NCBI RefSeq assembly: GCF_000018465.1
Contig: NC_010085.1
Location: 1,500,001-1,532,000, forward strand
Direction: 5' to 3'
Length of the DNA stretch: 32,000 nt
Origin: Nitrosopumilus maritimus SCM1
GTDB taxonomy: Archaea; Thermoproteota; Nitrososphaeria; Nitrososphaerales; Nitrosopumilaceae
The position numbers were made by a program, and so were the translations under genes. Below, in pieces: positions 2,127 through 31,619 of the stretch. The number at the start of each line of letters is the position of its first letter. Position 1 is the first letter of the stretch. The notes beneath the pieces were generated by a model. That model searched no databases. It was given only the letters and a program-made list of their open reading frames with translations, and was not told the DNA's origin.

Positions 2127-3422
2127 TCAAACTACAATAATTTCTCGTTGTACTAGATTCTCAATTATGTTTAAGAATTGTTCATCAGTAATTTTTTCTT
2201 CATACCACCAACCTGCAGGAATTTGTACCCATTGAGGAATCTTCCATTGTGATTCAGAAACTACTTCACGCGTTGGAACAGATAGGATTTGTTTTTCAAA
2301 AAGAAAGTCAATTCCTTCTAAAAATTCTGAATCAGGAATTTGTTGAGTTGCCCACCAGTCAGCATTTTGTTTTACCCAAACAGGAACTGTAGGAAGTTCA
2401 GGAGGTAATCCTTTGTCAAAACCTGAAATCTTCAAAACACCTTGGGATTGAGGCTCAACAGTAAATGCAACATGCCAGAATCCCATATCATCAATGCTTT
2501 GGATAAATTCTATAGGTTCGTCATTTAGTGTGACAGAAAATTTTTCATTTCCAGAAATTGGAGCAAATTCAAAGTTTGCATATGTCTCTAATGGATAACT
2601 ATTGTAACCTCTAATTGTCATTGTTGTTCCAGATTCATCAAATTTTGCAGCTGAATACCATGCACCTGAATCGTATCTGAAATCAAAATCACCACCATTC
2701 TTCTTTGCAGTCACAGGAATTACAGTAGTATCAACTGGTGCAAAGCAACTATAGTAAAAGATATCCTCAGTTACTGAAGGATCAGGATACATTGTAAAGT
2801 CTAGAATTTCTCCAGGTTCAATTTTTTCAATATATTCGATATTTTGAGTAATATCTAGAACTTTTTCATATCCATGAACAACTGCAAAAATTTTTGGAAA
2901 GTGTATTGTTTCATTTCCAGTGTTTTGAATTCTGCCTGATATATGACCATCTTCATGTTTGACTAGTGTCTTATCATAAAGAATTTGGATTGGAACTGGA
3001 TTAGTCATTGTTTGTTCATAAATTAATTCAGGATTAACTAGAACTGGAGTGTTTGATTGTACTTCAGGAAATTTTATCTTAAATGGAATTTCTGTTCCAG
3101 CAGCAAGTGGAACATGCTGAATAGTTTTTGAAATTGTTTCAGAATTTTCAATTACAGAAACGGTAATTGTAGGAATTATTGCAAAATCATTTTCATTTTT
3201 AACATTACCAACTACAGTGTAAATTCCAGTTGAATCAAAATATCCCAAGTACTCATGTAATGGAACATAAACTTCAGCAAAACTCAAACTAGGAGAAAAC
3301 AGAATGATTGAGAAAAATCCTAGTAATAGAAGAATTTGTGGTTGAGAAACTCTAGAAAGAGTTGATGATATCTTCGAATCCAGAAGTTGGTTTTTCAAGT
3401 AGGCTTGGTCTATAGTCTTCAA
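2127..3422 (-). CDS. Secreted protein with duplicated beta-sandwich-like domains and two C-terminal 37-aa WW modules
   Basis: 431 aa. The signal peptide ends ...SPSLSFA|EVY. The two C-terminal modules are VPVWVKQNADWWATQQIPDSEFLEGIDFLFEKQILSV (2277-2387) and IPQWVQIPAGWWYEEKITDEQFLNIIENLVQREIIVV (2130-2240). The tracked start at 3422 is TTG, and a second in-frame TTG lies at 3398. Either start overlaps the upstream wHTH gene by 47-71 nt, so the true start is uncertain. Confidence 0.8.
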   Translation of the reverse strand: MKTIDQAYLKNQLLDSKISSTLSRVSQPQILLLLGFFSIILFSPSLSFAEVYVPLHEYLGYFDSTGIYTVVGNVKNENDFAIIPTITVSVIENSETISKTIQHVPLAAGTEIPFKIKFPEVQSNTPVLVNPELIYEQTMTNPVPIQILYDKTLVKHEDGHISGRIQNTGNETIHFPKIFAVVHGYEKVLDITQNIEYIEKIEPGEILDFTMYPDPSVTEDIFYYSCFAPVDTTVIPVTAKKNGGDFDFRYDSGAWYSAAKFDESGTTMTIRGYNSYPLETYANFEFAPISGNEKFSVTLNDEPIEFIQSIDDMGFWHVAFTVEPQSQGVLKISGFDKGLPPELPTVPVWVKQNADWWATQQIPDSEFLEGIDFLFEKQILSVPTREVVSESQWKIPQWVQIPAGWWYEEKITDEQFLNIIENLVQREIIVV

Positions 3423-3852
3423 CTAGTTTATCTATCAAGTCTCTGACTTTAATATGATATCTTTTTTTGAGTTGAACAACTTTTGTTTCTACTAGTCCAT
3501 CATCAACTAGTTGTGACAAATACAATGACACGGTTGATGGGGATTTGTTTACCTCTTTAACTAGTTGAGGAAATTCTAAACCATCTTCTTTGACTAGTGC
3601 AAGTAACAAATCACGTGGAGTTTGTTTTCTTAATGCTTTGATAACAATTGATTCATCTTCTGTAATTTGTGGAGGATAGAATCTAGCTTGTCTTGGACCA
3701 CGATCAGCTTTGATAACTCCGTTTCTTTCTAATTTATCTAGATAATGACTTAGTACTCCATTTTTTAATCCAGAAGAACGCATGATTTCACGGAATTGGA
3801 TTCCTGGATTTTTTTCTATTATTTCTTGAATTTGTGAATCTCTATCAGTCAT
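3352..3852 (-). CDS. Transcriptional regulator with two winged-helix (ArsR/MarR-like) domains
   Basis: 166 aa. The first wHTH is IQFREIMRSSGLKNGVLSHYLDKLERNGVI. The second is FPQLVKEVNKSPSTVSLYLSQLVDDGLVE. Its start overlaps the stop of the upstream membrane-protein gene by 8 nt. Confidence 0.75.
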   Translation of the reverse strand: MTDRDSQIQEIIEKNPGIQFREIMRSSGLKNGVLSHYLDKLERNGVIKADRGPRQARFYPPQITEDESIVIKALRKQTPRDLLLALVKEDGLEFPQLVKEVNKSPSTVSLYLSQLVDDGLVETKVVQLKKRYHIKVRDLIDKLVEDYRPSLLEKPTSGFEDIINSF

Positions 3853-4237
3853 TTCTAAACACTCCTAACGCTAGCAATCCTAATGTTGCAAAGGTCAATA
3901 AATGTCCTACCTCTGCAAGAGGCATAAATTCTAGATCATAGATGCTTGGCCATGTTGCATCAACTAACAAAACAACTTCAGCTGCAATAAAGTTGGCAAA
4001 TGCTATAGAGCTAAGTAAAAGTCGTTTTGTTCTTAATCGATAGTATGCAAATCCTGCAAGTATTGAGATGAAAACTGCAAGAGTAATTCCTCCAACATGT
4101 AAAAAGATGTGAGCGATATGATGCCCATGTAGTAAATGAGGGATGATTACTGGTAAAGCCAAAATTGCAACAACACCAGTAACTACAAGAGAAAATAGCA
4201 TAGATTTTTTCTCTAGTATCCTTTCAGCTCTAAACAA
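3845..4237 (-). CDS. Small polytopic membrane protein with a His-rich first helix end
   Basis: 130 aa (118 aa from the ATG at 4201) with about 4 predicted TM helices and the motif PHLLHGHHIAHIFLH. The tracked start at 4237 is TTG, and the ATG at 4201 (MLFSLVVTG...) is an equally good start. Confidence 0.6.
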   Translation of the reverse strand: MFRAERILEKKSMLFSLVVTGVVAILALPVIIPHLLHGHHIAHIFLHVGGITLAVFISILAGFAYYRLRTKRLLLSSIAFANFIAAEVVLLVDATWPSIYDLEFMPLAEVGHLLTFATLGLLALGVFRND

Positions 4238-4300
4238 AGTAATGAAATTTGATTAATTTTTCATTTAAAGCAACTGGTTCAATTCTCGAACTAGCATCGA

Positions 4301-5923
4301 TCAGACACGAATGATTCCCTTTTGAATCAAATATTCCAGTCCTTGGACAAATGTCTGATCGTCTATTTGTTTTGCAGCCCACCATGCAGCATTGTTTCTA
4401 ATCCATGATGGAATTTCTTGGGATGAAGAATCTTGTTGTTGTGTTGATGGAATTACAATTATTTTGTTTTTGATGAGATATTCAATTCCTTGAACAAATG
4501 TATTATCATCAATTTGTTCTTCAGACCACCACAATGCATTGTTTCTAATCCAATCAGGAATTGTAATTTCTTTTTGAGATGTAACTCTATCAATTACAAT
4601 TGGAATAGTTGTTCTTGCAAGATCATTATTATCTAAATTATTAAAATTTAGATTAACAATTCCTGTAACATCTTGTGGAATTGTAAACTCTACTACATTA
4701 TGTTCTTCTCTTGAATCAGTACTTGTTCCACTTTGTTGGTAAATGACTTTGTTATTTTGTGTAATAGAGAAATCATAATTTGTTGCTATAGGTTTGTTTT
4801 TCAAGAAAACATCAGTTACATCAAATAATATTTTTGCATCAGAACCAGATTGCAAGTTTTCAGGTTCCCAAGATGCAAAAATTCGAAATTGTCCATTTTC
4901 AGTAACTGAGCTCATATGCGGATAATCTCTATCAGGAGTAATTAGGAAATTCATGCCATTTTCATTTGAGCCATTTTCAAGAACTCGGAGTAATTCTTGT
5001 TGATAAATAATAAAATGCACCACACGACCGTCAGAAAAAAAGTCATCTATTGTAGATATGTCATCAGAGAGTTCTACTCCATTAATGTACATGGTGAATC
5101 CAGATACAAGCAAATCACCATAGGTTTTTGGAATATCTAACTCTTCATGGACAACTGATGTTTGATTGATGTTTGTATGACTCCATTCAAAAGGCATTGA
5201 AAATCTAATCTCTTTTGAATCAGTATCATATTCAAAGTCAGATATTTCATCATAGTAAGTAATTACGTCAATGCTTTGTTCTCCAAAGTTTGGATCAACA
5301 AAATCATGGCTAGAGGTTTGGGCAATAGAAATTCCTGCATTAAACACTAGTGGTTTTTCAAGTGTTTTTGAATATCCATCAGCAGTAAGTATACTGATAT
5401 CAAATTTGTACAGTCCACCCTCACTGAGTTTTGGGCCTTTGACATGAATTAGTCTACTATCTAATCCCAATATGGAACCAAAGAAATTAGCACCAGTTTC
5501 TTCTTCTATTACAATAGAATCAGTTTCTTCTGAAACAAAATTGAATACTAGAAAACCATTATCTGTTTTGAATTCTTGCTCAAAGAGAAATTGGTTTCCT
5601 TTCTCAGATTTTATGTGAAATGTAACATCACGTAGTGTAATTTTTGAATCAAAGTCAATCAGAGAAATAGAGATTTGTTGATCGTCATCTGCTTCAGGAT
5701 CACTTTGTGATGAAGAAACCTCTACAGTTACTTGTTTTCCATCAAGGTTTACAGGAGGAAATGTCTCACTTCCTACACCATGACCAAAGGCACTATCAAA
5801 AGTAAATACAAACAACAATGGCAGTAAAAGTAACAGGAATAGATTTTTCAAATTATGTCCACTTGTTTGGATCTTTTTTACGAATTTCTTTTCCATCAAT
5901 TGTAACAGAGTCTTTTTCTTCAA
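4301..5923 (-). CDS. Secreted multi-domain protein, paralog of 6093-7811, with a predicted N-terminal His after signal cleavage and two C-terminal WW modules
   Basis: 540 aa as tracked, from a TTG start. The signal peptide ends ...FTFDSAFG|HGVGSE. It is collinear with 6093-7811 in sequence (SIAQ..., MPFEW/MPFDW, VVHEE..PKT, VVHF(I/L)I..QEL). The WW modules are at 4451-4561 and 4304-4414. Alternative starts are the ATG at 5896 and the TTG at 5851 (MKNLFLLLLLPLLF...). Confidence 0.85.
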   Translation of the reverse strand: MKKKTLLQLMEKKFVKKIQTSGHNLKNLFLLLLLPLLFVFTFDSAFGHGVGSETFPPVNLDGKQVTVEVSSSQSDPEADDDQQISISLIDFDSKITLRDVTFHIKSEKGNQFLFEQEFKTDNGFLVFNFVSEETDSIVIEEETGANFFGSILGLDSRLIHVKGPKLSEGGLYKFDISILTADGYSKTLEKPLVFNAGISIAQTSSHDFVDPNFGEQSIDVITYYDEISDFEYDTDSKEIRFSMPFEWSHTNINQTSVVHEELDIPKTYGDLLVSGFTMYINGVELSDDISTIDDFFSDGRVVHFIIYQQELLRVLENGSNENGMNFLITPDRDYPHMSSVTENGQFRIFASWEPENLQSGSDAKILFDVTDVFLKNKPIATNYDFSITQNNKVIYQQSGTSTDSREEHNVVEFTIPQDVTGIVNLNFNNLDNNDLARTTIPIVIDRVTSQKEITIPDWIRNNALWWSEEQIDDNTFVQGIEYLIKNKIIVIPSTQQQDSSSQEIPSWIRNNAAWWAAKQIDDQTFVQGLEYLIQKGIIRV

Positions 5924-6059
5924 AGATTGTATGCCATTTACCGTTACTAGGGAAAATTTTGTTCATCTCTTCAACTTTTTTACTGGTTGGAGCTTTATTC
6001 ATCAAAGCTCCCCACCTCATGTTAGGAACTTTTGGCATGATATCATTGATGTCTTTCAT
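5853..6059 (-). CDS. Possible small protein (68 aa), function unknown
   Basis: This ORF is open in an AT-rich genome where random ORFs are short, and it lies between the two large paralogs. Its stop (5853-5855) sits 1 nt before the in-frame TTG at 5851 of the next gene. It has no recognisable motif and overlaps the tracked N-terminus of 4301-5923. Confidence 0.35.
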   Translation of the reverse strand: MKDINDIMPKVPNMRWGALMNKAPTSKKVEEMNKIFPSNGKWHTIFEEKDSVTIDGKEIRKKDPNKWT

Positions 6060-6092
6060 TTTATTATCACTTTACTGAATTTATTTAAAAAC

Positions 6093-7811
6093 TTATGATT
6101 GAACTTTCATGATTCCTTCTTTAATCAAGAATTGAATTCCTTGGATAAAGGCATCATCATCAATTGCGCCTTCTGCCCACCAACCTGCATTGTTTTTAAT
6201 CCATGCTGGAATTTCATTAGAACCTGTACCTTCACCTGCAGAGGTTGGGGGGATTTGCAAAATATTTTCTTTAACTAAATATTGAATTCCCTGAACAAAA
6301 GAACCATCATCTATTTGTCCAGCAGCCCACCATTCTGCATTGTTCTTAATCCATGCAGGAATTGCGGCCGGTGTTTGTTCTTCAGGTGTAGGCACAGTTT
6401 TACCAGTACTAGGACCTAACTCAATTATTCCTGAACCAATTCCTGCATAAGTCTCATCATATGCTAATCCAGTACCTAAGGCTCTAATGTCAATCCTATA
6501 GACTCCTTGTGATGGGACATAGATTTTCTTTATGTCAATTCCTTCAGTGGCCACTATTCCTGGCATTTGTGGATCATCTCCCAAAAAGGTCTCTAGGACT
6601 TCATCGTTTTCGTCAATAAATGATACAACATATCTCATATCTCGAATAAGTTCTCTATTTTCATCAAAGAATGTAATCTCAAATGGAATTTCATCTCCTG
6701 CGCCATAACTTCCATCCCATGAAATGTTAACAGTTGTTGGAACAGGTTCATAGTTTGTAGTGTCTACTAGATAAAATTCAGTTGATTGTTTTTCTATTTC
6801 ATCAAGTGGAACGAGTTTCAAATCCATTTTTGGATTTTCATAGTTTGCTTCACCTAATGTCTCGTTAATTCTTTGTAATTCTTGATTAGTAATTAGAAAG
6901 TGAACAACGTTAGTATCATCATATGAGTATGGATCATTTAGTAATGCTCTTTGATCAACCTCGATACCATTAACATATCCTTTGAATTGTTTACCTTCTG
7001 CATATGGTGCAAATGTTTTTGGGACTCTAACTTCTTCATGAACTACTTGGACCAAATCAACATATTCTGGAGTCCAGTCAAATGGCATATCAAATGAAAT
7101 TGAATTATCTGATTGATCAAAGTTGAAATTATCAACTTGATCATAGTATGTTTTGACAACAACTGGAATGTCTGCATTTGCAGTTTGTATCATAAAGTTT
7201 TGATCTTGTGCAATACTAACAAAAGTATCATAGCTTAACAAATTTGCCAAGATAGATTTTGGACTGGTTGCAGCTTCAATATCAACACGGATTTGATACA
7301 ATCCACCTTCTATGAATATTGGACCCGTAATTTCAGGTCTTGCACACACATCTAAATTCTCATCATTACAATCCGTACCATAAACAAATAGAGCACCAGG
7401 TGCACTGACATGTTCTGAACCATAATAAACAGAACATTGATGTAGATTTTCCTCATTACAATCAGTTTTTGGTGTTATTTTTACATCTAGTCGTCCATCC
7501 AAATCATAAAACAAGTTTCTAGCTAAAAGTTCTCCACTTTGCCAAACTTCTATTCTGTAGGTTACTTTGTCAAGATTGGTATCAGTCACAGTATCAAAGA
7601 AACGAACTTGCATGTTTGCGGTATCAACTTCACCTACTGTAATATCAGATGGAGTTAGTTGTGTGCTAACAGTCACTGCCATATCACCAAAAGAGATAGC
7701 AGGAGCTTGATCTCCACCTAGACCATGTCCAAAGACATCAGGTACTAATGCAGGTATTGTGAAAATTCCAATTATCGTAATGAATAACGCAAATTTGTTA
7801 TGCAATACCAA
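6093..7811 (-). CDS. Secreted multi-domain protein, paralog of 4301-5923, with a predicted N-terminal His and two C-terminal WW modules
   Basis: 572 aa. Only TTG starts are available (7811 or 7805). The signal peptide ends ...ALVPDVFG|HGLGGD. The WW modules are [37 protein letters not shown] (6252-6362) and [39 protein letters not shown] (6096-6212). Confidence 0.85.
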
Positions 7812-7915
7812 AACAATGTTAATTCCATATTTAAAGATGGCATAGTATTCCTATACGTGAGATTTTTTTTAAGAATGATGGTACGATTTTTATTTATCAA
7901 TTTTTGAAGTACGGT

Positions 7916-8743
7916 ATGAAGATTCTGTTTGTATTATTACTTATTCCATTTTTAATGGTTCCAGCATTTGCTGAAACTCAAACATTACCCACAGAAAAGA
8001 ATACTCTTGATGTTAAATTAACATACGATACCATTGAGCCAGGTATTCAAACTAAGATCAACATAGATTTTATTAATCCACAAACTCAAAAAGTTCAAGA
8101 ACACATTGACTATACAGTAGTTGTTTCAAAAGATGGTGAGACTGTATTTGGTCCAATTCCACTTACACATACTTCTCTGGGTTCTGTCAAAATCCCAATA
8201 GAATTTAATCGTGGTGAAGGAGTGTATTCAATGGACTTTGAAGTTGAAGGAATTTTATTCCAACCAATTCCAAGAGAGACTGTATCTTTTGATATTCAAG
8301 TAGGTGAAGCCAATGCACAACCAATTACACCACCTGAAGACAACAATGATGAGAATAATGGAGAAAATGGGGGTTGTCTTATTGCAACAGCAACATTTGG
8401 TTCAGAACTTGCACCACAAGTACAACAACTTAGGGAACTTAGAGACAACACAGTTCTCAAAACAAATTCAGGAATTACATTTATGACAACTTTTAATCAA
8501 TTCTATTATTCGTTCTCACCAGTTATTGCAGACTTTGAAAGAGAGCAACCATTATTCAAAGAAGTTATGAAAGTAACACTCACTCCAATGTTATCATCAT
8601 TATCATTGCTTAATCATGCAGATATTGATTCAGAACAAGAGATGTTAGGTTATGGCATATCCATAGTACTGCTAAATCTTGGAATGTATGTTGGAATTCC
8701 TATATTTGGAATTCTAAAGTTGTACCAATTTAGAAAAAACTAG
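7916..8743 (+). CDS. Secreted beta-sandwich protein with a CFI-box-type C-terminal domain (GC(L/F)IATA(T/A)(F/Y)GS...LRxxRD)
   Basis: The tracked ORF starts at the TTG at 7904, but the ATG at 7916 gives MKILFVLLLIPFLMVPAFA|ETQ. An Asn/Glu/Asp/Gly-rich acidic linker is followed by GGCLIATATFGSELAPQVQQLRELRDNTVL... (Cys codon at 8375-8377) and a hydrophobic tail. This matches the motif I recall for CFI-box-CTERM proteins. Confidence 0.8.
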   Translation: MKILFVLLLIPFLMVPAFAETQTLPTEKNTLDVKLTYDTIEPGIQTKINIDFINPQTQKVQEHIDYTVVVSKDGETVFGPIPLTHTSLGSVKIPIEFNRGEGVYSMDFEVEGILFQPIPRETVSFDIQVGEANAQPITPPEDNNDENNGENGGCLIATATFGSELAPQVQQLRELRDNTVLKTNSGITFMTTFNQFYYSFSPVIADFEREQPLFKEVMKVTLTPMLSSLSLLNHADIDSEQEMLGYGISIVLLNLGMYVGIPIFGILKLYQFRKN

Positions 8744-8802
8744 GATTCACTTATTGGAAATTCTAGTGAGGTTTTTATGTATCCAACAAAGTAAACTGTT
8801 TA

Positions 8803-9615
8803 ATGAAGACTATAGCAATTTGCTCTCTCTTCGTACTATTTGCAATGGTAGCTGGATTAGTTGCAACAACGCCAGCAGCATTTGCAAACCATCCAGAAGT
8901 CACAATCGTACCAGCATCAGGTTCTGGTGCACCAGGTTGTGAAGAAACAGCAGATGGATGTTACATTCCAAGTACTGCAACAGTTGATGTTGGAGGTGTT
9001 GTAATCATGTCAAATACTGACACTGCAGCACACACATACACTTCAGGAACTCCAGATGATGGACCAGACGGTATCTTTGATACTAGTTTGTTAATGGCCG
9101 GAAGTTCATTTGAATGGAGTCCAACTGAAGAAGGTGAATATCCTTACTTCTGTATGGTACATCCTTGGATGCAAGGTACGATTATAGCTGCAGCAGCAGG
9201 AGCTGACGATCATGGTGACGATGGCGGTGAATTAATGGTTTCAATTGCAGATTCACAAGTATTGGGTGGAACACAAATTGAACTTACATTCAGCGAATTA
9301 CACGTCAACTATGACATTACTGCAACACAAGGTGGCGAAGTAGTCCTACAAGAAACTAATCAACACGCAATGGAGTCTACAGCAACGCATCAAATTGATG
9401 CACTAGGTGCTGATGACAATCCAATTGATGTAGAAATTGTTTCTCTAGGAATTGGAGCACCAGGTGCTGAAGCAGATTGGACTGGACCAACAGGTGTAGT
9501 TGCAACTGCTAAAGTTGTTCCAGAATTTGGTACAATCGTAATGATGGTACTAACTGTTGCAATCATAAGCATTGTAGCAGTAACTGCAAAATCTAGAGTT
9601 ATTCCAAGATTTTAG
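8803..9615 (+). CDS. Plastocyanin-like blue copper protein with a PEFG-CTERM sorting signal
   Basis: 270 aa. The signal peptide ends ...TPAAFA|NHPE. The cupredoxin ligand pattern is ...AAHTYTS... and YFCMVHPWMQGTI (C-x2-H-x2-M). The C-terminus VVPEFGTIVMMVLTVAIISIVAVTAKSR (PEFG at 9520-9531) is the thaumarchaeal PEFG-CTERM architecture. Confidence 0.9.
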   Translation: MKTIAICSLFVLFAMVAGLVATTPAAFANHPEVTIVPASGSGAPGCEETADGCYIPSTATVDVGGVVIMSNTDTAAHTYTSGTPDDGPDGIFDTSLLMAGSSFEWSPTEEGEYPYFCMVHPWMQGTIIAAAAGADDHGDDGGELMVSIADSQVLGGTQIELTFSELHVNYDITATQGGEVVLQETNQHAMESTATHQIDALGADDNPIDVEIVSLGIGAPGAEADWTGPTGVVATAKVVPEFGTIVMMVLTVAIISIVAVTAKSRVIPRF

Positions 9616-9628
9616 GAATACTCTTTTT

Positions 9629-23134: not shown

Positions 23135-23647
23135 CTAACTTATGGTAACTAATCCTACTCTCCATGGATGAAATGAGCAATAGTAGTTGAAAACTCCTTT
23201 CTCCTCGAACGTAAATTCGAATCTATCTCCTGTATTTAGTGGTGGACTGTTAAACAATTGAATGACTTTTCCTCCCTCATCGATACTTTGTATGTTGTGT
23301 GGTACTGAATCATCATTTACCCATGTGACTGTAGTTCCTACTGAAATTTCCAGATTCAATGGAGAGTAAAATCCGGCGCCAGTTACATCAAAGTTTCCAT
23401 TTGGAATAACAACTTGCGCATTAACTACTTGTGGAACTGGCTCCATCACCGTATCTATTACAATTACTTCATTTTCAATCAAGAATTTTATCATGTTGAG
23501 AAATTCACTTTCTGAGACAATTCCTTCACCGTACCATAATGCTGTATTTTTTACCCACTCTGGAACTGATTCAGCAAATGCAGACACACCGCCAATAGAA
23601 AGAACAATAGGGATTAGTGCAAGAATCAGATAATTCATCACATACAA
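23135..23647 (-). CDS. Secreted cupredoxin with an N-terminal WW module and a non-canonical axial position
   Basis: 170 aa. The signal peptide ends ...GGVSAFA|ES. The WW module VPEWVKNTALWYGEGIVSESEFLNMIKFLIENEVIVI is at 23456-23566. The cupredoxin part reads VGTTVTWVNDDSVPHNIQS...YYCSFHPWRVGLVTIS, with Arg where the paralog at 8803 has the axial Met. Confidence 0.85.
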   Translation of the reverse strand: MYVMNYLILALIPIVLSIGGVSAFAESVPEWVKNTALWYGEGIVSESEFLNMIKFLIENEVIVIDTVMEPVPQVVNAQVVIPNGNFDVTGAGFYSPLNLEISVGTTVTWVNDDSVPHNIQSIDEGGKVIQLFNSPPLNTGDRFEFTFEEKGVFNYYCSFHPWRVGLVTIS

Positions 23648-23753
23648 TTTACATTAGAGATATTTAACTTTCAATTTTTTTACAAATTAATTCTTTTTCA
23701 AAAAATTCTAGATGTAAAATCAGTCTTTAATGCTAATTTGTTTTATTGTTGTA

Positions 23754-24788: not shown

Positions 24789-25129
24789 CTAAGATTTTTT
24801 AGATTTGATTTAATTAAAGAATTTCTTTTTAATAAAAAATTTAACGTTATATATTACAAAACCCAGTTTTTAATAAATTGAAATTGCAAAACAATTCAAA
24901 AATTTCAATAATTGGAATTATTGCTGGAATTATTTTGTATTTTATTCTAGTCAATAGACCTTAATTTACTATAATGTACAAATCAGATTAAAATTTGGGA
25001 AATATCTGTGGGTATTTTTCAAGTATCATATGAATCATAAAAAGAGAAACTTTTCAATTGTAAAATCAAATGGCATTGATCACACAAACTGTTTTTGGAA
25101 ATAATAAAAAGAAAAGAGATGTTAAATGA

Positions 25130-26542
25130 TCAAGAAGTCAGGATCTCTGCTACTACAGGAATTACTTCCCATAATGCGACATAATCGCCACTTTCTTGCA
25201 TTTCAGAAGCTACTTCATCAGTGTATAAACCATGAATGTTGATTGCTGGGTGAGCAATGCTTTGTTCTCCCATTGGTGGGACAGCATCACTTGGATTACC
25301 CAAAGCATATGCATAAGATGCTACTGGTGCTGGGATAACTCCTTTCTCAACTAGAACTGGGTTCAAGCCGAATGGGTCACCTGCTACAAAGACTGAAGCT
25401 GCGCCAGTGTAAATTGCTGCATAGTCATGATTTACTGCTGCATATACACCTGGTTCATCAAATACCAAATCAATGATTGCTCCTTGAGAACCTCCAATAT
25501 TCCATGTTTCGGTTCCTGCGGATTGTACTCTGTTACCTTGGACAACTCTATCCAATATTTCTCCTACAATGTGGAAGAAGACTGGTTCGTTACCATTGTT
25601 TTGTACAAAGAGTCTTACGTGTTGATCATTTTCAACAAATAAGAGTTGTGATTGGTATTGCTTGTTTTCAAGTCCATTCCATGGTTGTGCAACAAAGATG
25701 TTCTTGTTTACATCGCCTTTGACGAGTAAGTTATGAGCCATGTTTGGTACATAACCAAATTGCATTCCGTTAACAACTGTTGCAGTGTTATGATGTTGGA
25801 ACATTGCTCCTGCATCATAGTTGCCTTCAGGTGTAAGGTACAATTGATTGTATTGGAGTTGGAACTCTAATGCATCTGCATCATAGAATTTTCTGTCAAG
25901 TTCACCACTACCGCTAGTCTTCTCAACCATTAATTTCTTGTAACCATTTGCAGGATCAACGATTGCAATTCCGTACATGCCGGAAAGGACGTGTTGGTCC
26001 ATACCAATTAGTTTAACACCAGAACAATGGTATTTGAAAGTACCAGCTACTTCTGCGATGTAACAATACTGTGCTGTTTCGCCAGGATTGACAGACTCAA
26101 ATGCTGCTGCAGAAATTTGTGATGCGTGCATGTCGTTACCGTGTCCAGTAACTTCATCATCTGGAATTGTTAGTGTCATTTTGACTACATCACCTTGTGT
26201 GACTCTTAATGTTGGTCCTGGGACTTGTTGATTAAAAGTCATGGCGTTGTAAGTCTTACCACCCATAATTGGTAGCTCAACACTTTCACCAGTCAAGTTA
26301 AACTCAACGACATTACGTCCAGAGTTTTCTAGAACACCACAGTCAGTTTCTGCAAATGCTTGAGGCATTACAAGCTGTAAACCTCCCATTTGATGGATTT
26401 GTTCAAGCACATCGACATCCATACTTTGCATGTCAAGTGATTGTCCAGCAATCTGGGTTTGTGTGTATGTACTTCCGAATAGAGTTGCACCAATAACAGC
26501 TACTGCTGCAATTGTAAATAGTGCATTTATTCTTCTATTCAT
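25130..26542 (-). CDS. nirK: NirK-like copper-containing nitrite reductase / multicopper oxidase
   Basis: 470 aa. HGNDMH matches the NirK H-x3(D)-x-H T1/T2 motif, including the catalytic Asp position. YHCSGVKLIGMDQHVLSGMYG matches H-C...H-x4-M. The N-terminus MNRRINALF resembles a twin-arginine signal. Confidence 0.75.
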   Translation of the reverse strand: MNRRINALFTIAAVAVIGATLFGSTYTQTQIAGQSLDMQSMDVDVLEQIHQMGGLQLVMPQAFAETDCGVLENSGRNVVEFNLTGESVELPIMGGKTYNAMTFNQQVPGPTLRVTQGDVVKMTLTIPDDEVTGHGNDMHASQISAAAFESVNPGETAQYCYIAEVAGTFKYHCSGVKLIGMDQHVLSGMYGIAIVDPANGYKKLMVEKTSGSGELDRKFYDADALEFQLQYNQLYLTPEGNYDAGAMFQHHNTATVVNGMQFGYVPNMAHNLLVKGDVNKNIFVAQPWNGLENKQYQSQLLFVENDQHVRLFVQNNGNEPVFFHIVGEILDRVVQGNRVQSAGTETWNIGGSQGAIIDLVFDEPGVYAAVNHDYAAIYTGAASVFVAGDPFGLNPVLVEKGVIPAPVASYAYALGNPSDAVPPMGEQSIAHPAINIHGLYTDEVASEMQESGDYVALWEVIPVVAEILTS

Positions 26543-26744
26543 TAAGCACCGTGACTGCGAATCCTATATAATAATTCCCCTTGCCTAGAGTGCATTTTCA
26601 CCACATTTTTAAAAATAAAACCAGATTTTTTTCATTGATCGTTTATAGGACTTGTATAAAATAGAAGTTTTTTGCAGATATTAAAAAAACTTGATTTATG
26701 ATCTGAGTGTAGAATTTACATAAATTTCTAAGAAGATGTTTAGA

Positions 26745-27380
26745 CTATGAAATAGGCTTTTCATCTTTTTCTAAGATGTTGTTTCTAGTCCCAAGCCAAT
26801 CAGGCCATCCGGCCCATCCTTTGTTTTTGTATGTTCTATTGGGAGTTGTAGGTATATCTGCAGGTAGCTGAAATGTTTTGTAATATTGCACCCATTGAAG
26901 ATAATTACAAAGTTTTAATTTTCTTGCAAACATTCTAGCTTGATTAAATGGTCTGAATTTTTTGTTTTGTGGAGCTACGGTATAAGTCCCAAGCCAATCC
27001 CCAAACCCTTTCCACTCTTTTGTATAATACTGTCGTGGAACAGATGGGATGTCCTGAGGTTTTTTGTTTGATTTACAAAATTCTAACCAGTCATAATAAG
27101 TTCTTAAATTAAGTGAATGTGCAAATTTTCTCGCATCCTTAAATGATCTAAATTTTTTGTTTTGTGGAGCTACGGTATAAGTCCCAAGCCAATCCCCTAA
27201 CCCCTTCCACTTTTTTGCATAATGTTTTCGTGGAACAGATGGGATGTCCTGAGGTTTTTTGTTTGATTTACAAAACAAAATCCATTCACGTTCATTTTTT
27301 AATTTTAAACTGTGTACATAATCTCGTGCATTCTTAAAAGATTTGAATTTCATATTTTTTCTAATTGTCACATTTATCAC
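26745..27380 (-). CDS. Basic protein made of three ~65-aa repeats (F.(S/P)F..AR.F...L.L....W..(F/Y)(C/Y)K....P.DIP..P...Y...W.G..DWLGT), integrase-repeat-like
   Basis: 211 aa with repeats at aa 12-76, 77-141 and 142-198. The first two are about 75 percent identical and share long identical DNA runs. The start overlaps the stop of the upstream membrane-protein gene (ATGA, 27377-27380). Confidence 0.75.
   Translation of the reverse strand: MINVTIRKNMKFKSFKNARDYVHSLKLKNEREWILFCKSNKKPQDIPSVPRKHYAKKWKGLGDWLGTYTVAPQNKKFRSFKDARKFAHSLNLRTYYDWLEFCKSNKKPQDIPSVPRQYYTKEWKGFGDWLGTYTVAPQNKKFRPFNQARMFARKLKLCNYLQWVQYYKTFQLPADIPTTPNRTYKNKGWAGWPDWLGTRNNILEKDEKPIS
26787..27347. repeat. Intragenic tandem repeat, period 195 bp, about 2.9 units
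   Basis: Identical 47-nt runs lie at 26956-27002 / 27151-27197 and at 27034-27080 / 27229-27275, offset exactly 195 bp (65 codons). The third unit is degenerate. Confidence 0.9.
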
Positions 27381-28417
27381 AACATAATTTGCTTTATCTT
27401 ATTTTCCAAGTACAATACATAGAGTATTACGCCTATTAGAGATATTTCTAAAGACTTTGCAACAATTCCAGATATTTCTATATGTTCAGGGTGATTCTCA
27501 GGAGATAGTGGAGGAGTAAAATTTACAGCATAAATGTACAACCCTAACAAAACAAGAGACCCTAATAATCCAAAAAGATAGACAGTCGTATTTCTTCTAC
27601 GTAAAATACACGTATTTTTTTGCATACCTGTGGAGTCAGTTAGCAGTACAGATAATAACAATACCCCAAAACCAATTTGAGATATTGCAGCTAACAGCAA
27701 GAACATTCCATATTCGATACGGAGTGGGACATGATCAACGTAAACTGACAAATGGATTACTCCTCCAGAAAGAGCTAAAAACATCATAATGTATCGAAGT
27801 GTTTCATATCTTCCTAGCTTTCGTTTTGAAGTTTTATTTTTGTAATTATTTAGCAATGCATATCCAAAAACACCAAAAGGCAATATCACGACAATAACCA
27901 TCAACGAATTCCAAATGGTATTCCAATTCTCTGAAACTGAGACATTGAATAAAACTCTGGTACAATCGCAATTAAATGAACTGGAAGGTATTTGTCTGGG
28001 AGGCATCACATGTTCTTTGGTATTATTTTTTTCAGAAATGCTAAGTACAATTTGATAAGTTCCTTTGTCTTCAAAAACATAAGGGATTTCAAAATCGCCA
28101 ATAGCGCGTTTAGTCCAAGGTTCATAAAACAACCTTTTTTCCATATTTGTACTGTAGATTTCCAACATGGTTTCTAGTTCATACAAATCATTGCCATGTT
28201 CATCTTGAATGCTAAAAATTATTTTAGAATTTTCTCCAGGAGTTGGATTTCGAGGTTCAAATCCAATATAGGAATAATATTTTCCCTCCATTACGCCTCC
28301 TGAGCTGCTTTGTTCCAAATGAGCATATGAATTTGAAGAAGAAAATAGATACAGAAATGTCAATACAAAAAAAATAACAACTATTGAAGATTGTTTTTTA
28401 AGAGAAAATTTGTACAT
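27377..28417 (-). CDS. Membrane protein: exported beta-sandwich domain with a predicted N-terminal His plus a 5-TM C-terminal domain
   Basis: 346 aa. The signal peptide ends ...SSSNSYA|HLEQSS. The sandwich-like segment is FEPRNPTPGENSKIIFSIQDEHGNDL...GTYQIVLSI. Five hydrophobic helices follow, with GGVIHLSVYVDHV in the second. Confidence 0.75.
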   Translation of the reverse strand: MYKFSLKKQSSIVVIFFVLTFLYLFSSSNSYAHLEQSSSGGVMEGKYYSYIGFEPRNPTPGENSKIIFSIQDEHGNDLYELETMLEIYSTNMEKRLFYEPWTKRAIGDFEIPYVFEDKGTYQIVLSISEKNNTKEHVMPPRQIPSSSFNCDCTRVLFNVSVSENWNTIWNSLMVIVVILPFGVFGYALLNNYKNKTSKRKLGRYETLRYIMMFLALSGGVIHLSVYVDHVPLRIEYGMFLLLAAISQIGFGVLLLSVLLTDSTGMQKNTCILRRRNTTVYLFGLLGSLVLLGLYIYAVNFTPPLSPENHPEHIEISGIVAKSLEISLIGVILYVLYLENKIKQIML

Positions 28418-28637
28418 TACAACAGTTTAGATATGTTTTAGAAAAATACTTTTTCAATAACAGTCAAAACAATATCCTTGACCATTTTCAAATAACCATC
28501 ATTAATTCAAACCAAAAAATCTTCATCTCAAATGATTTAAGAATAAAAAAACATGTGCAATAATAGATATAATTGATGTTTTACGGTTGCACTAGTTTAA
28601 AATAAAATTTTGTACAACAAATCCTGTCACCAATATT

Positions 28638-28874
28638 TTAGATATATCGAATATTTTTTGCGATCTTGTATTGTTCCCTGTACTTTGTTGTACGTGGCTT
28701 CACTCTTAGTCTATGACCGCAGCAAGGACACCTAATTCCATCCCATTTCATAAATATATCACAAATGAAACACCTCTTTTGTCCTGAAAGATACCTACGG
28801 GAATTTTTTGGTTTTTTTGCTTTGTAATCTATACAAATATTCTTACAGACCATAATCAAAAAAATATTACTCAC
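28638..28874 (-). CDS. Small basic Cys-rich zinc-ribbon protein (copy 2)
   Basis: 78 aa (or from the internal MVCKN...). The pattern is CKNIC...CFIC...CPCCGH and then LRVKPRTTKYRE. It is a paralog of 16565-16792 and is likewise divergent from a DsbA-like gene. Confidence 0.65.
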   Translation of the reverse strand: MSNIFLIMVCKNICIDYKAKKPKNSRRYLSGQKRCFICDIFMKWDGIRCPCCGHRLRVKPRTTKYREQYKIAKNIRYI

Positions 28875-29001
28875 TTATTCAATCTTGTTTTTTCTAGTAC
28901 TCCACTAAAATGATTTTTATGTAATTTTATGATTGTACTATAATTCTTTTAATTTATTATCATACAAACAAAATTGATTATTAAAAAAGTGAAAAATTAG
29001 A

Positions 29002-29724
29002 ATGGATATAATAGATATTGTAAAAAATAACAAAACTACTCTTATTGCTAGTATTGTTCTTGTGATTGCTATTGCACTGTATTTTACAGAAATTCAAGCA
29101 AAAAATAATTCAGATTTGGGAGAAACTAACAGTTTAGATGCAAAAATATTGCCCGAAACAGAAATTTCAAAAGATGATGACCCACTATTGGGAAATCCCG
29201 ATGCTCCAATATCCATAATTGAATTTTCAGACTATCAGTGTCCTTTTTGTGCTAGATTTTACACTCAAACGTTACCTACCTTAGAATCAGAGTATATTGA
29301 AAAAGGCAAAGTCAATTTTATCTACCGTGACTTTCCAATACAAAATCATCCAAATGCAAGGCCTGCAGCCTTGGCATCAGAATGTGCCGATGAGCAAGAA
29401 CAATTTTGGGAGTATCATGATATTTTATTTAAGAAGCAAGATATGTGGAAAAGATTAGATCTTGATACAGTAACTTCTACATTCAAAGAGTATGCAGAGG
29501 AATTGAATTTGAATCAAGAAATGTTTGATTCTTGTCTTGATTCAGAAAAATATTCAGATGAAGTGGATTCAGATTTTGCAGATGGACGTAGTTATAAAAT
29601 TTCAGGCACACCAACATTTTTTATTGGAAATGAGGAGACAGGGTATTCTTCAGTTTTTGGTGCAAAATCATTTTATGAATTTCAAGAAATAATAGAAGAA
29701 AAATTAGATAAATTGGAAAAATAG
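29002..29724 (+). CDS. Membrane-anchored DsbA/BdbD-like thiol:disulfide oxidoreductase (copy 2)
   Basis: 240 aa with ISIIEFSDYQCPFCARFY and KISGTPTFFIG. By eye it is roughly half identical to copy 1 across the thioredoxin domain. Confidence 0.85.
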   Translation: MDIIDIVKNNKTTLIASIVLVIAIALYFTEIQAKNNSDLGETNSLDAKILPETEISKDDDPLLGNPDAPISIIEFSDYQCPFCARFYTQTLPTLESEYIEKGKVNFIYRDFPIQNHPNARPAALASECADEQEQFWEYHDILFKKQDMWKRLDLDTVTSTFKEYAEELNLNQEMFDSCLDSEKYSDEVDSDFADGRSYKISGTPTFFIGNEETGYSSVFGAKSFYEFQEIIEEKLDKLEK

Positions 29725-29731
29725 TATTAAA

Positions 29732-29953
29732 TTGATTGAAGAGAAAATTGCAAATGATGAAAGTAGATTAGATAATGCTGAAAAACAATTAAAATTCCAT
29801 ATAGATAAAAAATCAAAATTAATCAAACAACTAAAGGATACAAATGAATACAAACTACGAATAAAATTAAAAGAAAAAATCAATGAACAAAAAACTATGA
29901 TAGAAATTTGGATTAATGATATTAATTCAATAAAATCACGAGTAAAAAAATAA
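29732..29953 (+). CDS. Possible small Lys-rich coiled-coil protein
   Basis: 73 aa from a TTG start, 8 nt after the DsbA stop. The composition is low-complexity K/E/I-rich, and I recognised no motif. Confidence 0.3.
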   Translation: MIEEKIANDESRLDNAEKQLKFHIDKKSKLIKQLKDTNEYKLRIKLKEKINEQKTMIEIWINDINSIKSRVKK

Positions 29954-30044
29954 GGTCAATTTCAATAATTTTCATAAAAAATATCTACTAGTACAATGAT
30001 AAAACATTCTTACCAATTATAACCATAAGATGGTGTTGTAAACT

Positions 30045-31619
30045 GTGAATAAATCAAAATATCTAATCATTATTGCCAGTACAATAGTGCTAGCAGCAGT
30101 CGGATTATACGCCTATGATGAATTAATAGAAGACAAGGAATCCAAAATACAAGAGACTCGATCAGAAATAACAATACAAACAGAACCTGAATCAATTGAG
30201 ATTGTAGAGCTTACAGGAACACCACTGGATAACTATTCTCCTGAAGAACGAGATCAGCATTGTGGTAAATCAGATTTTAAATCAACTCGATATATTGAAG
30301 AGTTTGAGATCCCTACACCTTGTACTCAACCTCTTTCAATAATTACAGACTCTGAAGATAATGTATGGTTTGTTCAATCAAATACCGGAAATGTGGCAAT
30401 GTTTGATCCAATAACAAAAGAATTTGTAGAATACCAAAATGATCAATGGAATTTGAAAACGGCATCAATGATGTGGGGAATAACAATAACTGAAGATAAT
30501 GAGATATGGTTTACAGATGAAACAAATGATTACATTTGGAGGTTTTCAATTGATGACAAGACATATTCAAAAATAGACTTTCCTAGTGAAATAGAAAACG
30601 CTTTTCCACAAAAATTAGAATATCATAATGGATATTTCCTGATAAATGATTTTACAGGAAATCGAATTGTAATTTTAAATCATGAAAATTTGGATAATGG
30701 AGAAACAGAGTATGCAGTAATTGCAACACCCTCAGGATTCTTTACTAGTCAGACATCCGTTGATGACGATGAAAACATTTGGTTTGTGATCTGGAAATAC
30801 CAAAAAGAAGCAATTTTGATTAAAACAAATTTTGAAACACGCGAAACTGAAAATTTCATTCTTCCATCTAGCATTAGTGCACCAAATGGAGTTTCAGTTG
30901 GGCCTGCAGGAAATGTGTGGATTGCAGATACTGCAAGTAGTTCATTTTACAGATTCAGCCCAAATGATAACAAAGTAATTGAATTTGTTACATCTGATGC
31001 ACCAATATGGACATTTGGAAATTCGTCAGGATTGATTAAAACACCAATTACTAGACCGTATTGGAATTCATTTGATTCAAATGGAAACATGTGGTTTAAC
31101 CAACAAACAGCAAATAGATTAGCGGTGTTTGACCCTGTTTCAGAGTCATTATTAGAGTACGATATTCCGTCTAAAAATCCGGGATGGGCAGATTGTGGAG
31201 AACTGGTAGACTGTGGGACAGCACAAAGTTTTGATTTTACAGTTCAAAACGGGCAGGTTTGGTTTACAGAATGGGTTGAAAACAATATCGGGGTTTTAGA
31301 TACCTCAGTAGACATTCCTGTAACATTAGATGTAGAACAAAATGAGATTGAGATTAAACAGGGTGAGCAGAAGAAAATCTTTCTTACAATAAAGCCACAA
31401 GAAAAACAAAAAGTGGAATTATTTTTATCTACATCTACCAATTCGGAATTGATTGGAACAGAAACAAATACAGAACCCATATCAATTTCAGAACAAAGTC
31501 AAATTCCAGTCACAATACTTGTTGATGAAAATGCACATCAAGGAGATTATAAAATTCTATTAAGTGCACATCTTTTAGATGTAGTTGTATCAGAATATGT
31601 TACAGTCAAAGTAATTTAG
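30045..31619 (+). CDS. Secreted/anchored Vgb/NHL-like beta-propeller protein with a C-terminal beta-sandwich domain
   Basis: 524 aa from a GTG start (no ATG is available) with an N-terminal anchor. The blades are DNVWFVQSNTGNVAMFDP, EIWFTDETNDYIWRFS, NIWFVIW, NVWIADTASSSFYRFSP, NMWFNQQTANRLAVFDP and QVWFTEWVENNIGVLD. These have the same blade signature as the propeller in 10361-13144. Confidence 0.85.
   Translation: MNKSKYLIIIASTIVLAAVGLYAYDELIEDKESKIQETRSEITIQTEPESIEIVELTGTPLDNYSPEERDQHCGKSDFKSTRYIEEFEIPTPCTQPLSIITDSEDNVWFVQSNTGNVAMFDPITKEFVEYQNDQWNLKTASMMWGITITEDNEIWFTDETNDYIWRFSIDDKTYSKIDFPSEIENAFPQKLEYHNGYFLINDFTGNRIVILNHENLDNGETEYAVIATPSGFFTSQTSVDDDENIWFVIWKYQKEAILIKTNFETRETENFILPSSISAPNGVSVGPAGNVWIADTASSSFYRFSPNDNKVIEFVTSDAPIWTFGNSSGLIKTPITRPYWNSFDSNGNMWFNQQTANRLAVFDPVSESLLEYDIPSKNPGWADCGELVDCGTAQSFDFTVQNGQVWFTEWVENNIGVLDTSVDIPVTLDVEQNEIEIKQGEQKKIFLTIKPQEKQKVELFLSTSTNSELIGTETNTEPISISEQSQIPVTILVDENAHQGDYKILLSAHLLDVVVSEYVTVKVI

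Follow-up and report, generated by a model that had tools for sequence, protein, structure and literature searches.

Ammonia-oxidizing archaea (AOA) drive much of marine nitrification and have to obtain copper for ammonia monooxygenase and for their many blue-copper proteins. We analysed a stretch of 32,000 nucleotides from Nitrosopumilus maritimus SCM1 (bases 1,500,001-1,532,000 of the single 1,645,259-bp contig; hereafter the window) which carries a CopC-CopD fusion gene (CopCD) among many genes for exported and membrane proteins. Gene content was determined by Pfam and NCBIfam profile scans of the window proteins, and locus tags used in papers were mapped onto the window, where Nmar_1642-1654 correspond to positions 95-14677. 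The gene of the ZIP permease is Nmar_1662 (PMC6776035) and that of the window NirK is named Nmar_1667 in PMC7490402; tags matched to papers identify MCO1, which codes for a two-domain multicopper oxidase (MCO), as Nmar_1663 and the plastocyanin gene as Nmar_1665. The features are listed in Table 1. Taken together, they probably form a composite of independent modules and not a single copper system.

Table 1. Features of the window. Positions count from its first nucleotide; aa, amino acids; TM, transmembrane; wHTH, winged helix-turn-helix.
Feature	Position	Strand	Basis and remarks
Nmar_1644, exported Trp-module protein	from 2127	-	431 aa
Nmar_1645, double-wHTH regulator	3352-3852	-	Pfam
Nmar_1646, His-rich 4-TM protein (4TM)	3845-4237	-	TM prediction
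Nmar_1647, exported protein	4301-5923	-	540 aa; uncharacterised HG family
Nmar_1648, exported protein	6093-7811	-	572 aa; uncharacterised HG family
Nmar_1649, CFI-box-CTERM exported protein	from 7904	+	279 aa; NCBIfam NF041770 and TIGR04296 cited for Nmar_1649/1650
Nmar_1650, amicyanin-like cupredoxin with PEFG-CTERM	8803-9615	+	270 aa
Nmar_1651 ('P230')	9629-10267	-	divergent from CopCD
Nmar_1652 (CopCD), CopC-CopD fusion + Vgb_lyase/SGL beta-propeller + terminal TM helix	10361-13144	+	927 aa; Pfam
ZnuB, ZnuC, ZnuA (Nmar_1653-1655 by position)	13134-15591	-	ABC-3, ABC_tran, ZnuA by Pfam
NikR-type regulator	15683-16066	+	RHH + NikR_C; divergent from Znu
DsbA/Thioredoxin_4 #1	16880-17671		107 bits; CPFC; predicted N-terminal anchor
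BNR protein	18432-19400		Pfam
HxlR regulator	19440-19841		Pfam
ZIP permease, Nmar_1662	20144-21322	-	weak PF02535
Two-domain MCO1, Nmar_1663	21312-22373	-	Cu-oxidase_3 + Cu-oxidase_2
DtxR-type operator	22386-22456	-	three tandem 19-bp units ending in palindrome TTAGCCTAGGCTAA (22405-22418)
DtxR-family regulator	22483-22974	-	both DtxR domains
Plastocyanin-type cupredoxin, Nmar_1665	23135-23647	-	Pfam
Kelch propeller	23754-24788	-	Pfam; signal peptide + C-terminal TM helix
NirK, Nmar_1667	25130-26542	-	TIGR02376
INT_rpt protein	26745-27380	-	Trp-rich, without signal peptide
M346	27377-28417	-	His-first Ig-like domain + 5 TM helices
Second Zn-ribbon + DsbA pair (its DsbA is #2, next row); 73-aa protein	from 28638		Pfam, paralogy
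DsbA/Thioredoxin_4 #2	29002-29724		126 bits; CPFC; predicted N-terminal anchor
Anchored NHL/Vgb-type propeller	30045-31619		524 aa; Pfam

An initial annotation of the region had described it as one coordinated 30-kb copper system. Its gene inventory was borne out, as essentially every family that it named was recovered in the profile scans, and so was its statement that more than half of the genes encode exported or membrane proteins: of the 31 genes that a crude call gave for the span, 23 had a signal-like N-terminus or a TM segment, compared with 29% of the 1964 genes in a crude call of the whole genome. Sliding windows of 31 genes contained 9.0 such proteins on average (standard deviation 3.9), and only two regions of the genome attain 23, this one (about 1.489-1.537 Mb) and another at 1.029-1.057 Mb. 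Genes of the copper families (cupredoxin, MCO/NirK and CopCD, as defined by PF00127, PF07732 and CopCD) number about 25 in the genome and five in the span. The best 29.5-kb window contains six (P = 0.002 under a uniform null). With the null restricted to 0.70-1.55 Mb, chosen since nearly all copper-family genes fall in that part, P is 0.11 for at least five in a window. The clustering in the span is statistically real. Regarding the claim of at least eight copper signatures, five are backed by family evidence, but the four proteins with histidine as first mature residue (Nmar_1651, Nmar_1647, Nmar_1648 and M346) carry the signature only by predicted signal-peptide cleavage before the His; this residue is invariant in alignments of Nmar_1651 and of M346. 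The metallothionein-like open reading frame (ORF) that had been listed does exist (19938-20036, 10 Cys in 32 aa), and no homologue of it was found in the genome or in about 150 relatives' loci.

The second exported-protein-rich region (1,029,000-1,057,000) contains another copy of ZIP-MCO1-DtxR-Kelch, a ZnuA paralogue (48%), a cupredoxin/CFI-box fusion, another MCO, four DsbA paralogues and Zn-ribbon genes. The DsbA and Zn-ribbon paralogues of SCM1 are concentrated there, and 6 of the genome's 11 DsbA paralogues sit in the two regions.

Synteny was determined in 80 species-level Nitrosopumilus loci, collected with the CopCD partner Nmar_1651 as query and counted over informative loci, and in one representative each of 20 other genera of the family. 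The left part of the window (4301-13144, loosely 2127-16066) is an evolutionarily conserved unit around CopCD. Nmar_1651 and CopCD were adjacent in 77/77 Nitrosopumilus species loci, and the cupredoxin Nmar_1650 (60/66), the CFI-box protein Nmar_1649 (54/58), the 572-aa Nmar_1648 (48/54) and the 540-aa Nmar_1647 (39/51) were mostly in place. The genes of 4TM, wHTH and the 431-aa protein were found in 23-25/50 loci; Nmar_1644-1646 (2127-4237) are thus a semi-conserved accessory of the cassette. Conservation of the cassette extends beyond the genus. In the 20 other genera, the neighbourhood of CopCD contained a divergent and adjacent Nmar_1651 partner in 18, the cupredoxin in 17, the CFI-box protein in 16, a 572-type protein in 16 and an HG-family gene on the far side in 18. 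Three genomes from other families also keep the Nmar_1651 partner beside CopCD, and full-length CopC-CopD-propeller proteins occur in 115/121 genomes of the family and in 24/25 genera.

The picture changes to the right of the NikR gene. The ZnuABC-NikR module is a frequent insert downstream of CopCD in many lineages (ZnuB 72/73, ZnuC 70/72, ZnuA 45/64, NikR 55/59 species loci; Znu-NikR in 9 of the 20 other genera), but the six genes that follow (16198-19841) were in place in 0/57, 0/56, 0/55, 1/54 (Usp), 0/50 and 0/50 loci. When window proteins were searched by tblastn against the 40 kb around CopCD in ten complete congeners, the genes of 4301-13144 were found in 10/10 and those of 16198-31619 in 0/10. 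ZIP, MCO1, DtxR, NirK, Kelch, BNR, HxlR, M346 and the 524-aa propeller were found near CopCD in 0/20 other genera. Among 40 relatives, MCO1, NirK and CopCD lie hundreds of kb apart in every complete congener, for example at 0.31, 1.14 and 1.45 Mb in G009 and at 0.59, 1.66 and 2.06 Mb in G016. The cassette thus keeps its gene order in the 80 Nitrosopumilus species and in 16-18 of the 20 genera outside it, and in complete congeners the anchor genes MCO1 and NirK lie far from it.

In about 40 of 51 informative species loci, those of the closest relatives included, NikR (or ZnuA, also as an extra copy of it) is immediately followed by the counterpart of SCM1 gene 1,543,991-1,545,379 and by its neighbours. 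Hence SCM1 carries about 26.5 kb (genome positions 1,516,100 to about 1,542,600) that all sampled relatives lack at this site; the left 16 kb of this segment are window positions 16100-32000. Its cargo within the window comprises a small exported protein, two Zn-ribbon + DsbA pairs, Usp (76% identity to a paralogue at 1,615,312), BNR, HxlR, the metallothionein-like ORF, ZIP-MCO1, DtxR, plastocyanin, Kelch, NirK, the INT_rpt protein, M346 and the propeller. Beyond the window follow an HtrA-like protease, a triple-wHTH protein, a second 4TM, a second HG-family protein, a PsbP-like protein, a cupredoxin, a Zn-ribbon protein and EamA and YnfA transporters. The only mobility-like features are the INT_rpt-domain protein and an Orc1/Cdc6-type gene at the border. 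The latter (Cdc6_lid, AAA and Cdc6_C; 1,542,607-1,543,926, minus strand) lies at the right border, 10.6 kb past the end of the window; in L047 its orthologue sits between NikR/ZnuA and the next conserved gene. The right half of the window thus lies in a segment seen at this site only in SCM1, and it is built of second copies. To the left of the cassette, a MoxR-DUF58-linked envelope block (window 95-1999; 1,490,971-1,501,999) is variable as well, being missing in several relatives (e.g. L051, L053) and present in others.

Nmar_1652, the central protein of the cassette, scored 39.7 bits for CopC (cut-off 23.3) and 55.1 bits for CopD (cut-off 32.1). The closest PDB sequence match of its CopC domain is the CopC domain of Bacillus subtilis YcnJ. 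It keeps both the N-terminal His (ASA|HPF, predicted cleavage) and the D-G-H motif (VDGHLV aligns with the DGH of YcnJ), which makes Nmar_1652 a putative YcnJ-like Cu(II) importer. Its divergent partner Nmar_1651 is predicted to be a membrane-tethered beta-sandwich protein. An AlphaFold2 model of Nmar_1651 adopts an Ig-like sandwich whose weak top fold matches are CrdA and FetP/P19; because filamin domains score closely behind, this likeness to periplasmic copper proteins is only a lead. YcnI/DUF1775 was considered as an identity of Nmar_1651 and rejected: there was no Pfam, NCBIfam or PDB sequence match, and YcnI was outside the top 50 fold matches. The two share only their layout of signal peptide, His1, sandwich domain and C-terminal TM helix. 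A paralogue of Nmar_1651 (28% identity) is encoded at 1,617,135-1,617,791, about 1.4 kb from the Usp paralogue.

Nmar_1650 has a weak Pfam cupredoxin score but displays a C-x-x-H-x-x-M site (C-M-V-H-P-W-M) in addition to its PEFG-CTERM. Nmar_1647 and Nmar_1648 share a predicted mature N-terminus HG(V/L)G and Trp-rich C-terminal modules. Neither matched a Pfam or NCBIfam profile, and a PDB sequence search with an HG-family protein gave no match; the family has five paralogues in the genome with FGHG after the signal peptide. Between both HG-family genes lies a 55-codon ORF (5931-6098, plus strand) which shows 62-83% identity in relatives. It is annotated in RefSeq as NMAR_RS08805, and its expression is 13-36 transcripts per million (TPM).

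The divergent promoter between Nmar_1651 and CopCD (10268-10360, 93 bp) is almost invariant in an intergenic alignment across 80 species. It contains TTCGATCTTTGTACCAAT on the minus strand (10299-10316), which agrees in 16/18 positions with the motif TTCSGSMTTTGWACYANT reported upstream of genes induced by copper limitation, including copC/D, in Nitrososphaera viennensis (Reyes et al. 2020, PMC7785015). Ten sites in the SCM1 genome match TTCSGSMTTTGWACYANT with two mismatches or fewer. Three of these are located at the Nmar_1651/CopCD promoter, at the 4TM-wHTH operon (4273-4290, 45 bp upstream, 16/18 match) and at the Nmar_1651 paralogue at 1,617,135. Upstream of that paralogue, the same TTTGTACCAAT core lies at a distance of 64-67 bp. 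In front of 28/28 4TM orthologues, three other genera included, TTCGAnnnnTGAACCAGT is found 3-4 bp upstream of TTTAAAT, and 14/28 4TM promoters match TTCSGSMTTTGWACYANT with three mismatches or fewer, as compared with about 1% of random 130-bp windows from the same loci. A strict motif-plus-TATA scan for a wider regulon matched only the 4TM promoter. The 4TM-wHTH pair occurs in 3/20 other genera, always by CopCD and in two of them directly downstream of it, and in another family it adjoins an Nmar_1651-type partner gene. Judged from this linkage, the pair (Nmar_1645/1646) is likely the sensor and regulator of the cassette, with TTCGATCTTTGTACCAAT and TTCGAGAATTGAACCAGT as candidate targets of Nmar_1645.

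The adjoining Znu module is assigned with high profile scores (ZnuA 265, ABC-3 permease 211, ABC ATPase 119 bits). The closest solved relatives of ZnuA are the zinc binders YcdH, AdcA and ZnuA, and the ZnuABC importer is most likely one for zinc. Both domains of the divergently encoded NikR-type protein exceed their cut-offs (RHH 24.0, NikR_C 45.4 bits). Three of the four ligands of the square-planar Ni site (H76', H87, H89 and C95 in Escherichia coli) are kept; the equivalent of H89 is Lys, and in the alignment an extra His stands two residues upstream of it.

In the right half, MCO1 (Cu-oxidase_3 83, Cu-oxidase_2 81 bits; motifs HFH147, HCH185, HLH274 and HAH321) overlaps the gene of a weakly recognised ZIP permease with seven predicted TM helices (PF02535 19.1 bits, cut-off 35.1; ZupT E = 2.5e-9, below cut-off). 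The adjacent DtxR-type regulator (Nmar_1664; other copy Nmar_1132) has both domains of the family at scores that exceed the cut-off (DNA-binding 77.2, metal-binding/dimerisation 47.1 bits). ZIP, MCO1 and DtxR are 83, 79 and 80% identical to the other copy at 1,033,565-1,036,431, and ZIP and MCO1 were neighbours in 10/10 relatives, two other families included. The MCO1 tree groups the other SCM1 copy with that of L044 (support 100/99) inside a clade supported at 97/98, whereas the window copy branches outside this clade, near G016; the ZIP tree was unresolved. This placement of MCO1 argues against a recent internal duplication. In the complete relative L044 (NZ_OZ253550.1, locus 500-4600), a single ZIP-MCO1-DtxR module was seen. 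It directly adjoins NikR-Usp and the CopCD cassette, and its MCO1 belongs to the lineage of the other SCM1 copy (91%).

Exactly two copies of the palindrome TTAGCCTAGGCTAA exist in the genome; one stands ahead of each MCO1, 36-39 bp upstream of its start and directly in front of the TATA box. Related boxes repeated in tandem every 19 bp precede MCO1 in 11/11 relatives, one of them in another family, and in several of the 11 the DtxR gene is not adjacent. A weight matrix was built from the relatives' MCO1 boxes and scanned over the SCM1 genome. The next-best matches were a tandem pair, TTAGATTGGGCTAA and TTAGCTTAGGTTAA at 288,859 and 288,878 (288,859-288,891), which are 19 bp apart and have the same architecture as the MCO1 boxes of relatives. 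The gene behind them encodes the binding protein of a Tro-like ABC importer, listed as Nmar_0328-0331 (PMC6776035). No other window promoter contained a scoring DtxR-type box in the matrix scan, and a search for palindromic operators common to window promoters yielded the DtxR-type box only, with none shared across modules. In a literature search, no description was found of a DtxR-type operator of MCO1-ZIP common to a Tro-like importer. DtxR, IdeR, MntR and TroR sense Fe, Mn or Zn, and we know of no DtxR-family regulator that senses copper. Because of this precedent, MCO1-ZIP is most likely controlled by iron, manganese or zinc rather than copper. The ZIP permease itself has been listed as a generalist divalent-cation transporter considered for iron (PMC6776035).

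The remaining genes of the right half are for the most part second copies too. Plastocyanin Nmar_1665 is 79% identical to a copy at 1,195,212 and was up during O2 production in a proteome study. It ends C-S-F-H-P-W-R, with Arg where amicyanin-type sites and Nmar_1650 have Met, which suggests an unusual type-1 copper site. The Kelch propeller is 63% identical to a copy at 1,036,866 (within 1,033,565-1,037,891). The window NirK matched TIGR02376 with E = 4e-37 and 128 bits (equivalog cut-off 296), has the HC...H...M pattern with two extra residues and shares 91% identity with the copy at 1,154,583; since the single NirK of six relatives is collinear with SCM1 1.148-1.162 Mb, the window NirK is the extra copy. 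In G064, a second NirK lies beside an INT_rpt gene, a cupredoxin operon and genes for wHTH, 4TM and propeller proteins, so accessory regions like that of SCM1 occur elsewhere. The adjacency of NirK and INT_rpt is thus also seen in G064; in SCM1 the stop of M346 overlaps the INT_rpt start (27377-27380), and NirK is encoded on the same strand 202 bp further on. M346 is rare (1/120 family genomes). H33 (after the signal peptide), CxC, H222 and H229 are invariant in its alignment, with H222 and H229 on one TM helix. Its AlphaFold2 model (predicted local distance difference test, pLDDT, 79.9) consists of an Ig-like domain and five TM helices; the fold matches are generic, with CrdA and PmoD in the top five, and PDB sequence matches were absent. 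Homologues of the 524-aa propeller lie near CopCD in L073 and G038, beside NirK in G008 and beside Kelch in G090; a DNA-level search with the right half, one source of these cases, considered the top three candidates per genome and hence gives examples and not counts.

Expression was taken from biofilm-versus-planktonic TPM data (PMC12448741, Dataset S4), which cover Nmar_1642-1654. Within the conserved block, values span 3 to 4265 TPM: ZnuC 3-6, ZnuB 7-15, Nmar_1647 18-33, CopCD 25-42, Nmar_1651 about 175, Nmar_1648 222-384 and Nmar_1650 3661-4265 (rank 26). The window MCO1 was expressed at 4-6 TPM, and the very low level of MCO1-ZIP transcripts in replete medium (2-6 TPM) fits repression. 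For copper-limited N. maritimus, papers summarising Qin et al. 2018 state that CopC/D was down, a lone CopD up and that the two MCO1 genes responded in 'conflicting' ways. MCO1 and the adjacent permease were mildly induced under copper limitation in N. viennensis (PMC7785015).

In the composite reading, the gene identities, synteny with its breakpoints, paralogy, the distribution of operators and expression levels are shown by the data above, and the metal specificities, the hand-off between proteins and the pairing of regulators with elements are inferred. Nmar_1647/1648, 1649, 1650, 1651 and 1652 together with the flanking HG-family gene would be an ancient cell-surface cassette which plausibly handles copper at the cell surface. 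Nmar_1652 may capture Cu(II) on its N-terminal-His CopC domain and hand it to CopD, with Nmar_1651 and the HG-family proteins as presumed surface metal-binding helpers and the very highly expressed Nmar_1650 as a blue-copper electron carrier. The cassette would have its own promoter element and, as likely sensor and regulator, the recurrently linked 4TM + double-wHTH pair. A second module, ZnuABC with its divergent NikR-type regulator, would serve most likely zinc as a common insert after CopCD. Finally, the flexible segment of about 26.5 kb appears to have been received at the same site, adding extra envelope redox and metal copies and rare accessory genes; in it, MCO1-ZIP would be repressed via the DtxR-type operator also found before the Tro-like ABC importer. 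We thus infer pairings of 4TM + wHTH with the CopCD cassette, of NikR with Znu and of DtxR with MCO1-ZIP (and Tro), with HxlR assigned to no module.

Several observations weigh against this reading. The variable segment lacks an integrase, tRNA genes (none was found in the window) and flanking repeats, and its GC content is not shifted (0.330 versus 0.342 genome-wide). Right-half families also occur as cargo at the same site in other lineages (NikR-Usp-ZIP-MCO1-DtxR in L044, NikR-M346-propeller in L073) or, in G030 (M346) and G038 (the propeller), at a distance of 3-5 kb from CopCD; because of this recurrence, a functional link of the right half to CopCD may still exist. The model of Nmar_1651 is of low confidence (pLDDT 61.5). 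Papers treat MCO1-ZIP as copper acquisition, and one of them states that no MCO other than an MCO1 was induced when N. maritimus was limited for copper, which conflicts with a control by Fe, Mn or Zn unless the chelator also depleted other metals. These points do not restore the initial annotation, in which all of the about 30 kb formed one coordinated copper system for ammonia oxidation, with four regulators integrating its control. Such a system is very improbable. It could account for the significant clustering of exported proteins and copper families, for the combination of the same families at 1.03-1.057 Mb and for the presence of some right-half families beside CopCD in few other lineages, and the literature (PMC7785015 among the sources) counts both CopCD and MCO1-ZIP as copper-acquisition genes. 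What stood of the claim is the clustering and the conservation of the left part around CopCD, but the right half is not linked to the cassette in nearly all relatives, where its anchor genes are scattered, an outcome that the initial annotation had itself named as a ground for refutation, and expression and reported copper responses are non-uniform. The joint action of four regulators was not upheld: operators and motifs are module-specific with none common to both halves, NikR goes with Znu, whose ZnuA is of the zinc type, and the box of DtxR, a family without copper sensing to our knowledge, was found only before MCO1-ZIP and the Tro-like importer. Hardly more credible is the opposite view, applicable to the right half only, that the clustering has no functional meaning, AOA being rich in copper and exported proteins and flexible regions accumulating surface genes. 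Copper-family genes (about 25) and DsbA paralogues (11) are indeed spread over the genome, both cassette flanks are variable, and the restricted null yields the P value of 0.11; yet order and orientation of the cassette are conserved at the family level, the genome-wide clustering is significant (P = 0.002), and the same rare families were repeatedly captured near CopCD.

Two further explanations concern the origin and the function of the right half. It might have arisen by internal segmental duplication from the 1.03-1.057 Mb island with subsequent divergence and without a source in another lineage, as ZIP, MCO1 and DtxR are collinear in both places with Kelch nearby (83, 79, 80 and 63% identity), both islands have paralogues of DsbA and the Zn-ribbon gene as well as an identical operator palindrome, and the NirK copies share 91%. 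We consider this unlikely, given that the MCO1 tree pairs the other copy with L044 (100/99) within a clade (97/98) that excludes the window copy, and that the NirK-INT_rpt-cupredoxin-propeller region of G064 suggests exchange between species; the ZIP tree, being unresolved, lends the duplication no support. Somewhat more plausible, although still doubtful, is that MCO1-ZIP-DtxR is a copper-acquisition device in which MCO1 oxidises Cu(I) and ZIP imports Cu(II), so that the right half would be copper-related though non-syntenic. The mild induction of MCO1 and permease in copper-limited N. viennensis (PMC7785015), the report of an MCO1 as sole induced MCO in N. maritimus and the L044 module directly by the CopCD-Znu-NikR block speak for it. 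They are opposed by the conserved DtxR-type operator common to the Tro-like Mn/Fe/Zn ABC importer, by the adjacent regulator with both DtxR domains, by the reported 'conflicting' responses of the two MCO1 genes and by the listing of ZIP as a generalist considered for iron (PMC6776035).

The composite reading can be carried one step further, tentatively, to a joint proposal of two parts. One is a conserved copper-sensing circuit of AOA in which the His-rich 4TM and the double-wHTH protein would act on TTCGN4TTGWACCART; this element would directly precede the TATA box both in the promoter of the CopCD partner and in that of the regulator itself, and would equal the copper-limitation element of N. 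viennensis. The other is an insertion hot-spot downstream of CopCD at which envelope metal and NO modules (Znu-NikR, ZIP-MCO1-DtxR, M346 + propeller) would have been captured repeatedly. If the hot-spot exists, species would tune their metal handling by module swaps beside a fixed core.

The cassette resembles ycnKJI of B. subtilis in that both have CopC fused to CopD, the CopC being of the Cu(II) type with an N-terminal His, a neighbouring gene for a membrane-tethered beta-sandwich protein whose mature form begins with His, and a dedicated regulator nearby. Unlike its bacterial counterpart, the archaeal Nmar_1652 has an extra beta-propeller and a terminal TM helix, Nmar_1651 lacks a sequence or fold match to YcnI/DUF1775, the candidate regulator is 4TM + double-wHTH and not YcnK, and the cassette adds a cupredoxin, a CFI-box protein and HG-family proteins. 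In the CopC/D cluster of N. viennensis (25 genes, of which 15 were induced under copper limitation; Reyes et al. 2020, PMC7785015), CopC/D fusions likewise stand amid exported proteins of unknown function, and TTCSGSMTTTGWACYANT lies upstream of CopC/D; the window has a 16/18 match to it in the CopCD/Nmar_1651 promoter and another before the 4TM-wHTH operon. That paper takes the motif as evidence of conserved regulation in terrestrial AOA (PMC7785015), whereas N. maritimus CopC/D is reported as down; our comparison covers CopC/D and the motif. The pair of MCO1 and ZIP permease in AOA (Kerou et al. 2016, as cited in Reyes et al. 2020) has the same adjacent, overlapping genes, but SCM1 has two copies and that of the window is a divergent lineage.

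Regulons of DtxR, IdeR, MntR and TroR (e.g. troABCD-troR) share with the SCM1 system a regulator with both domains, AT-rich palindromic operators overlapping the promoter and targets that include a cluster A-I type ABC metal importer. In SCM1, in contrast, the targets include a multicopper oxidase-ZIP operon and the 14-bp palindromes are arranged in 19-bp tandem units. As in flexible islands of marine microbes and in bacterial cop/pco islands, a specific segment with envelope and metal-related cargo lies at a fixed site between conserved genes; it differs from them in having no integrase, tRNA, repeats or GC shift. Unlike in cop/pco islands, efflux genes such as CopA/CusCBA are absent from it and the cargo consists of paralogues of resident genes, not of resistance determinants.

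For SCM1, which serves as a model strain, the atypical extra copies of NirK, MCO1-ZIP and plastocyanin matter wherever its expression results are applied to other strains. The MCO1-ZIP module, commonly taken for one of copper uptake, has in front of it a DtxR-type operator common to a Mn/Fe/Zn-type importer. The part of the region worth pursuing is the conserved CopCD cassette; the rest, a variable segment seen at this site in SCM1 only, holds metal and redox modules of the envelope that are redundant and separately controlled. With six genes kept family-wide, among them those of three or four uncharacterised surface proteins, the cassette offers the best candidates for the copper pathway, and the former 'island' now also yields a candidate regulator and a cis-element.

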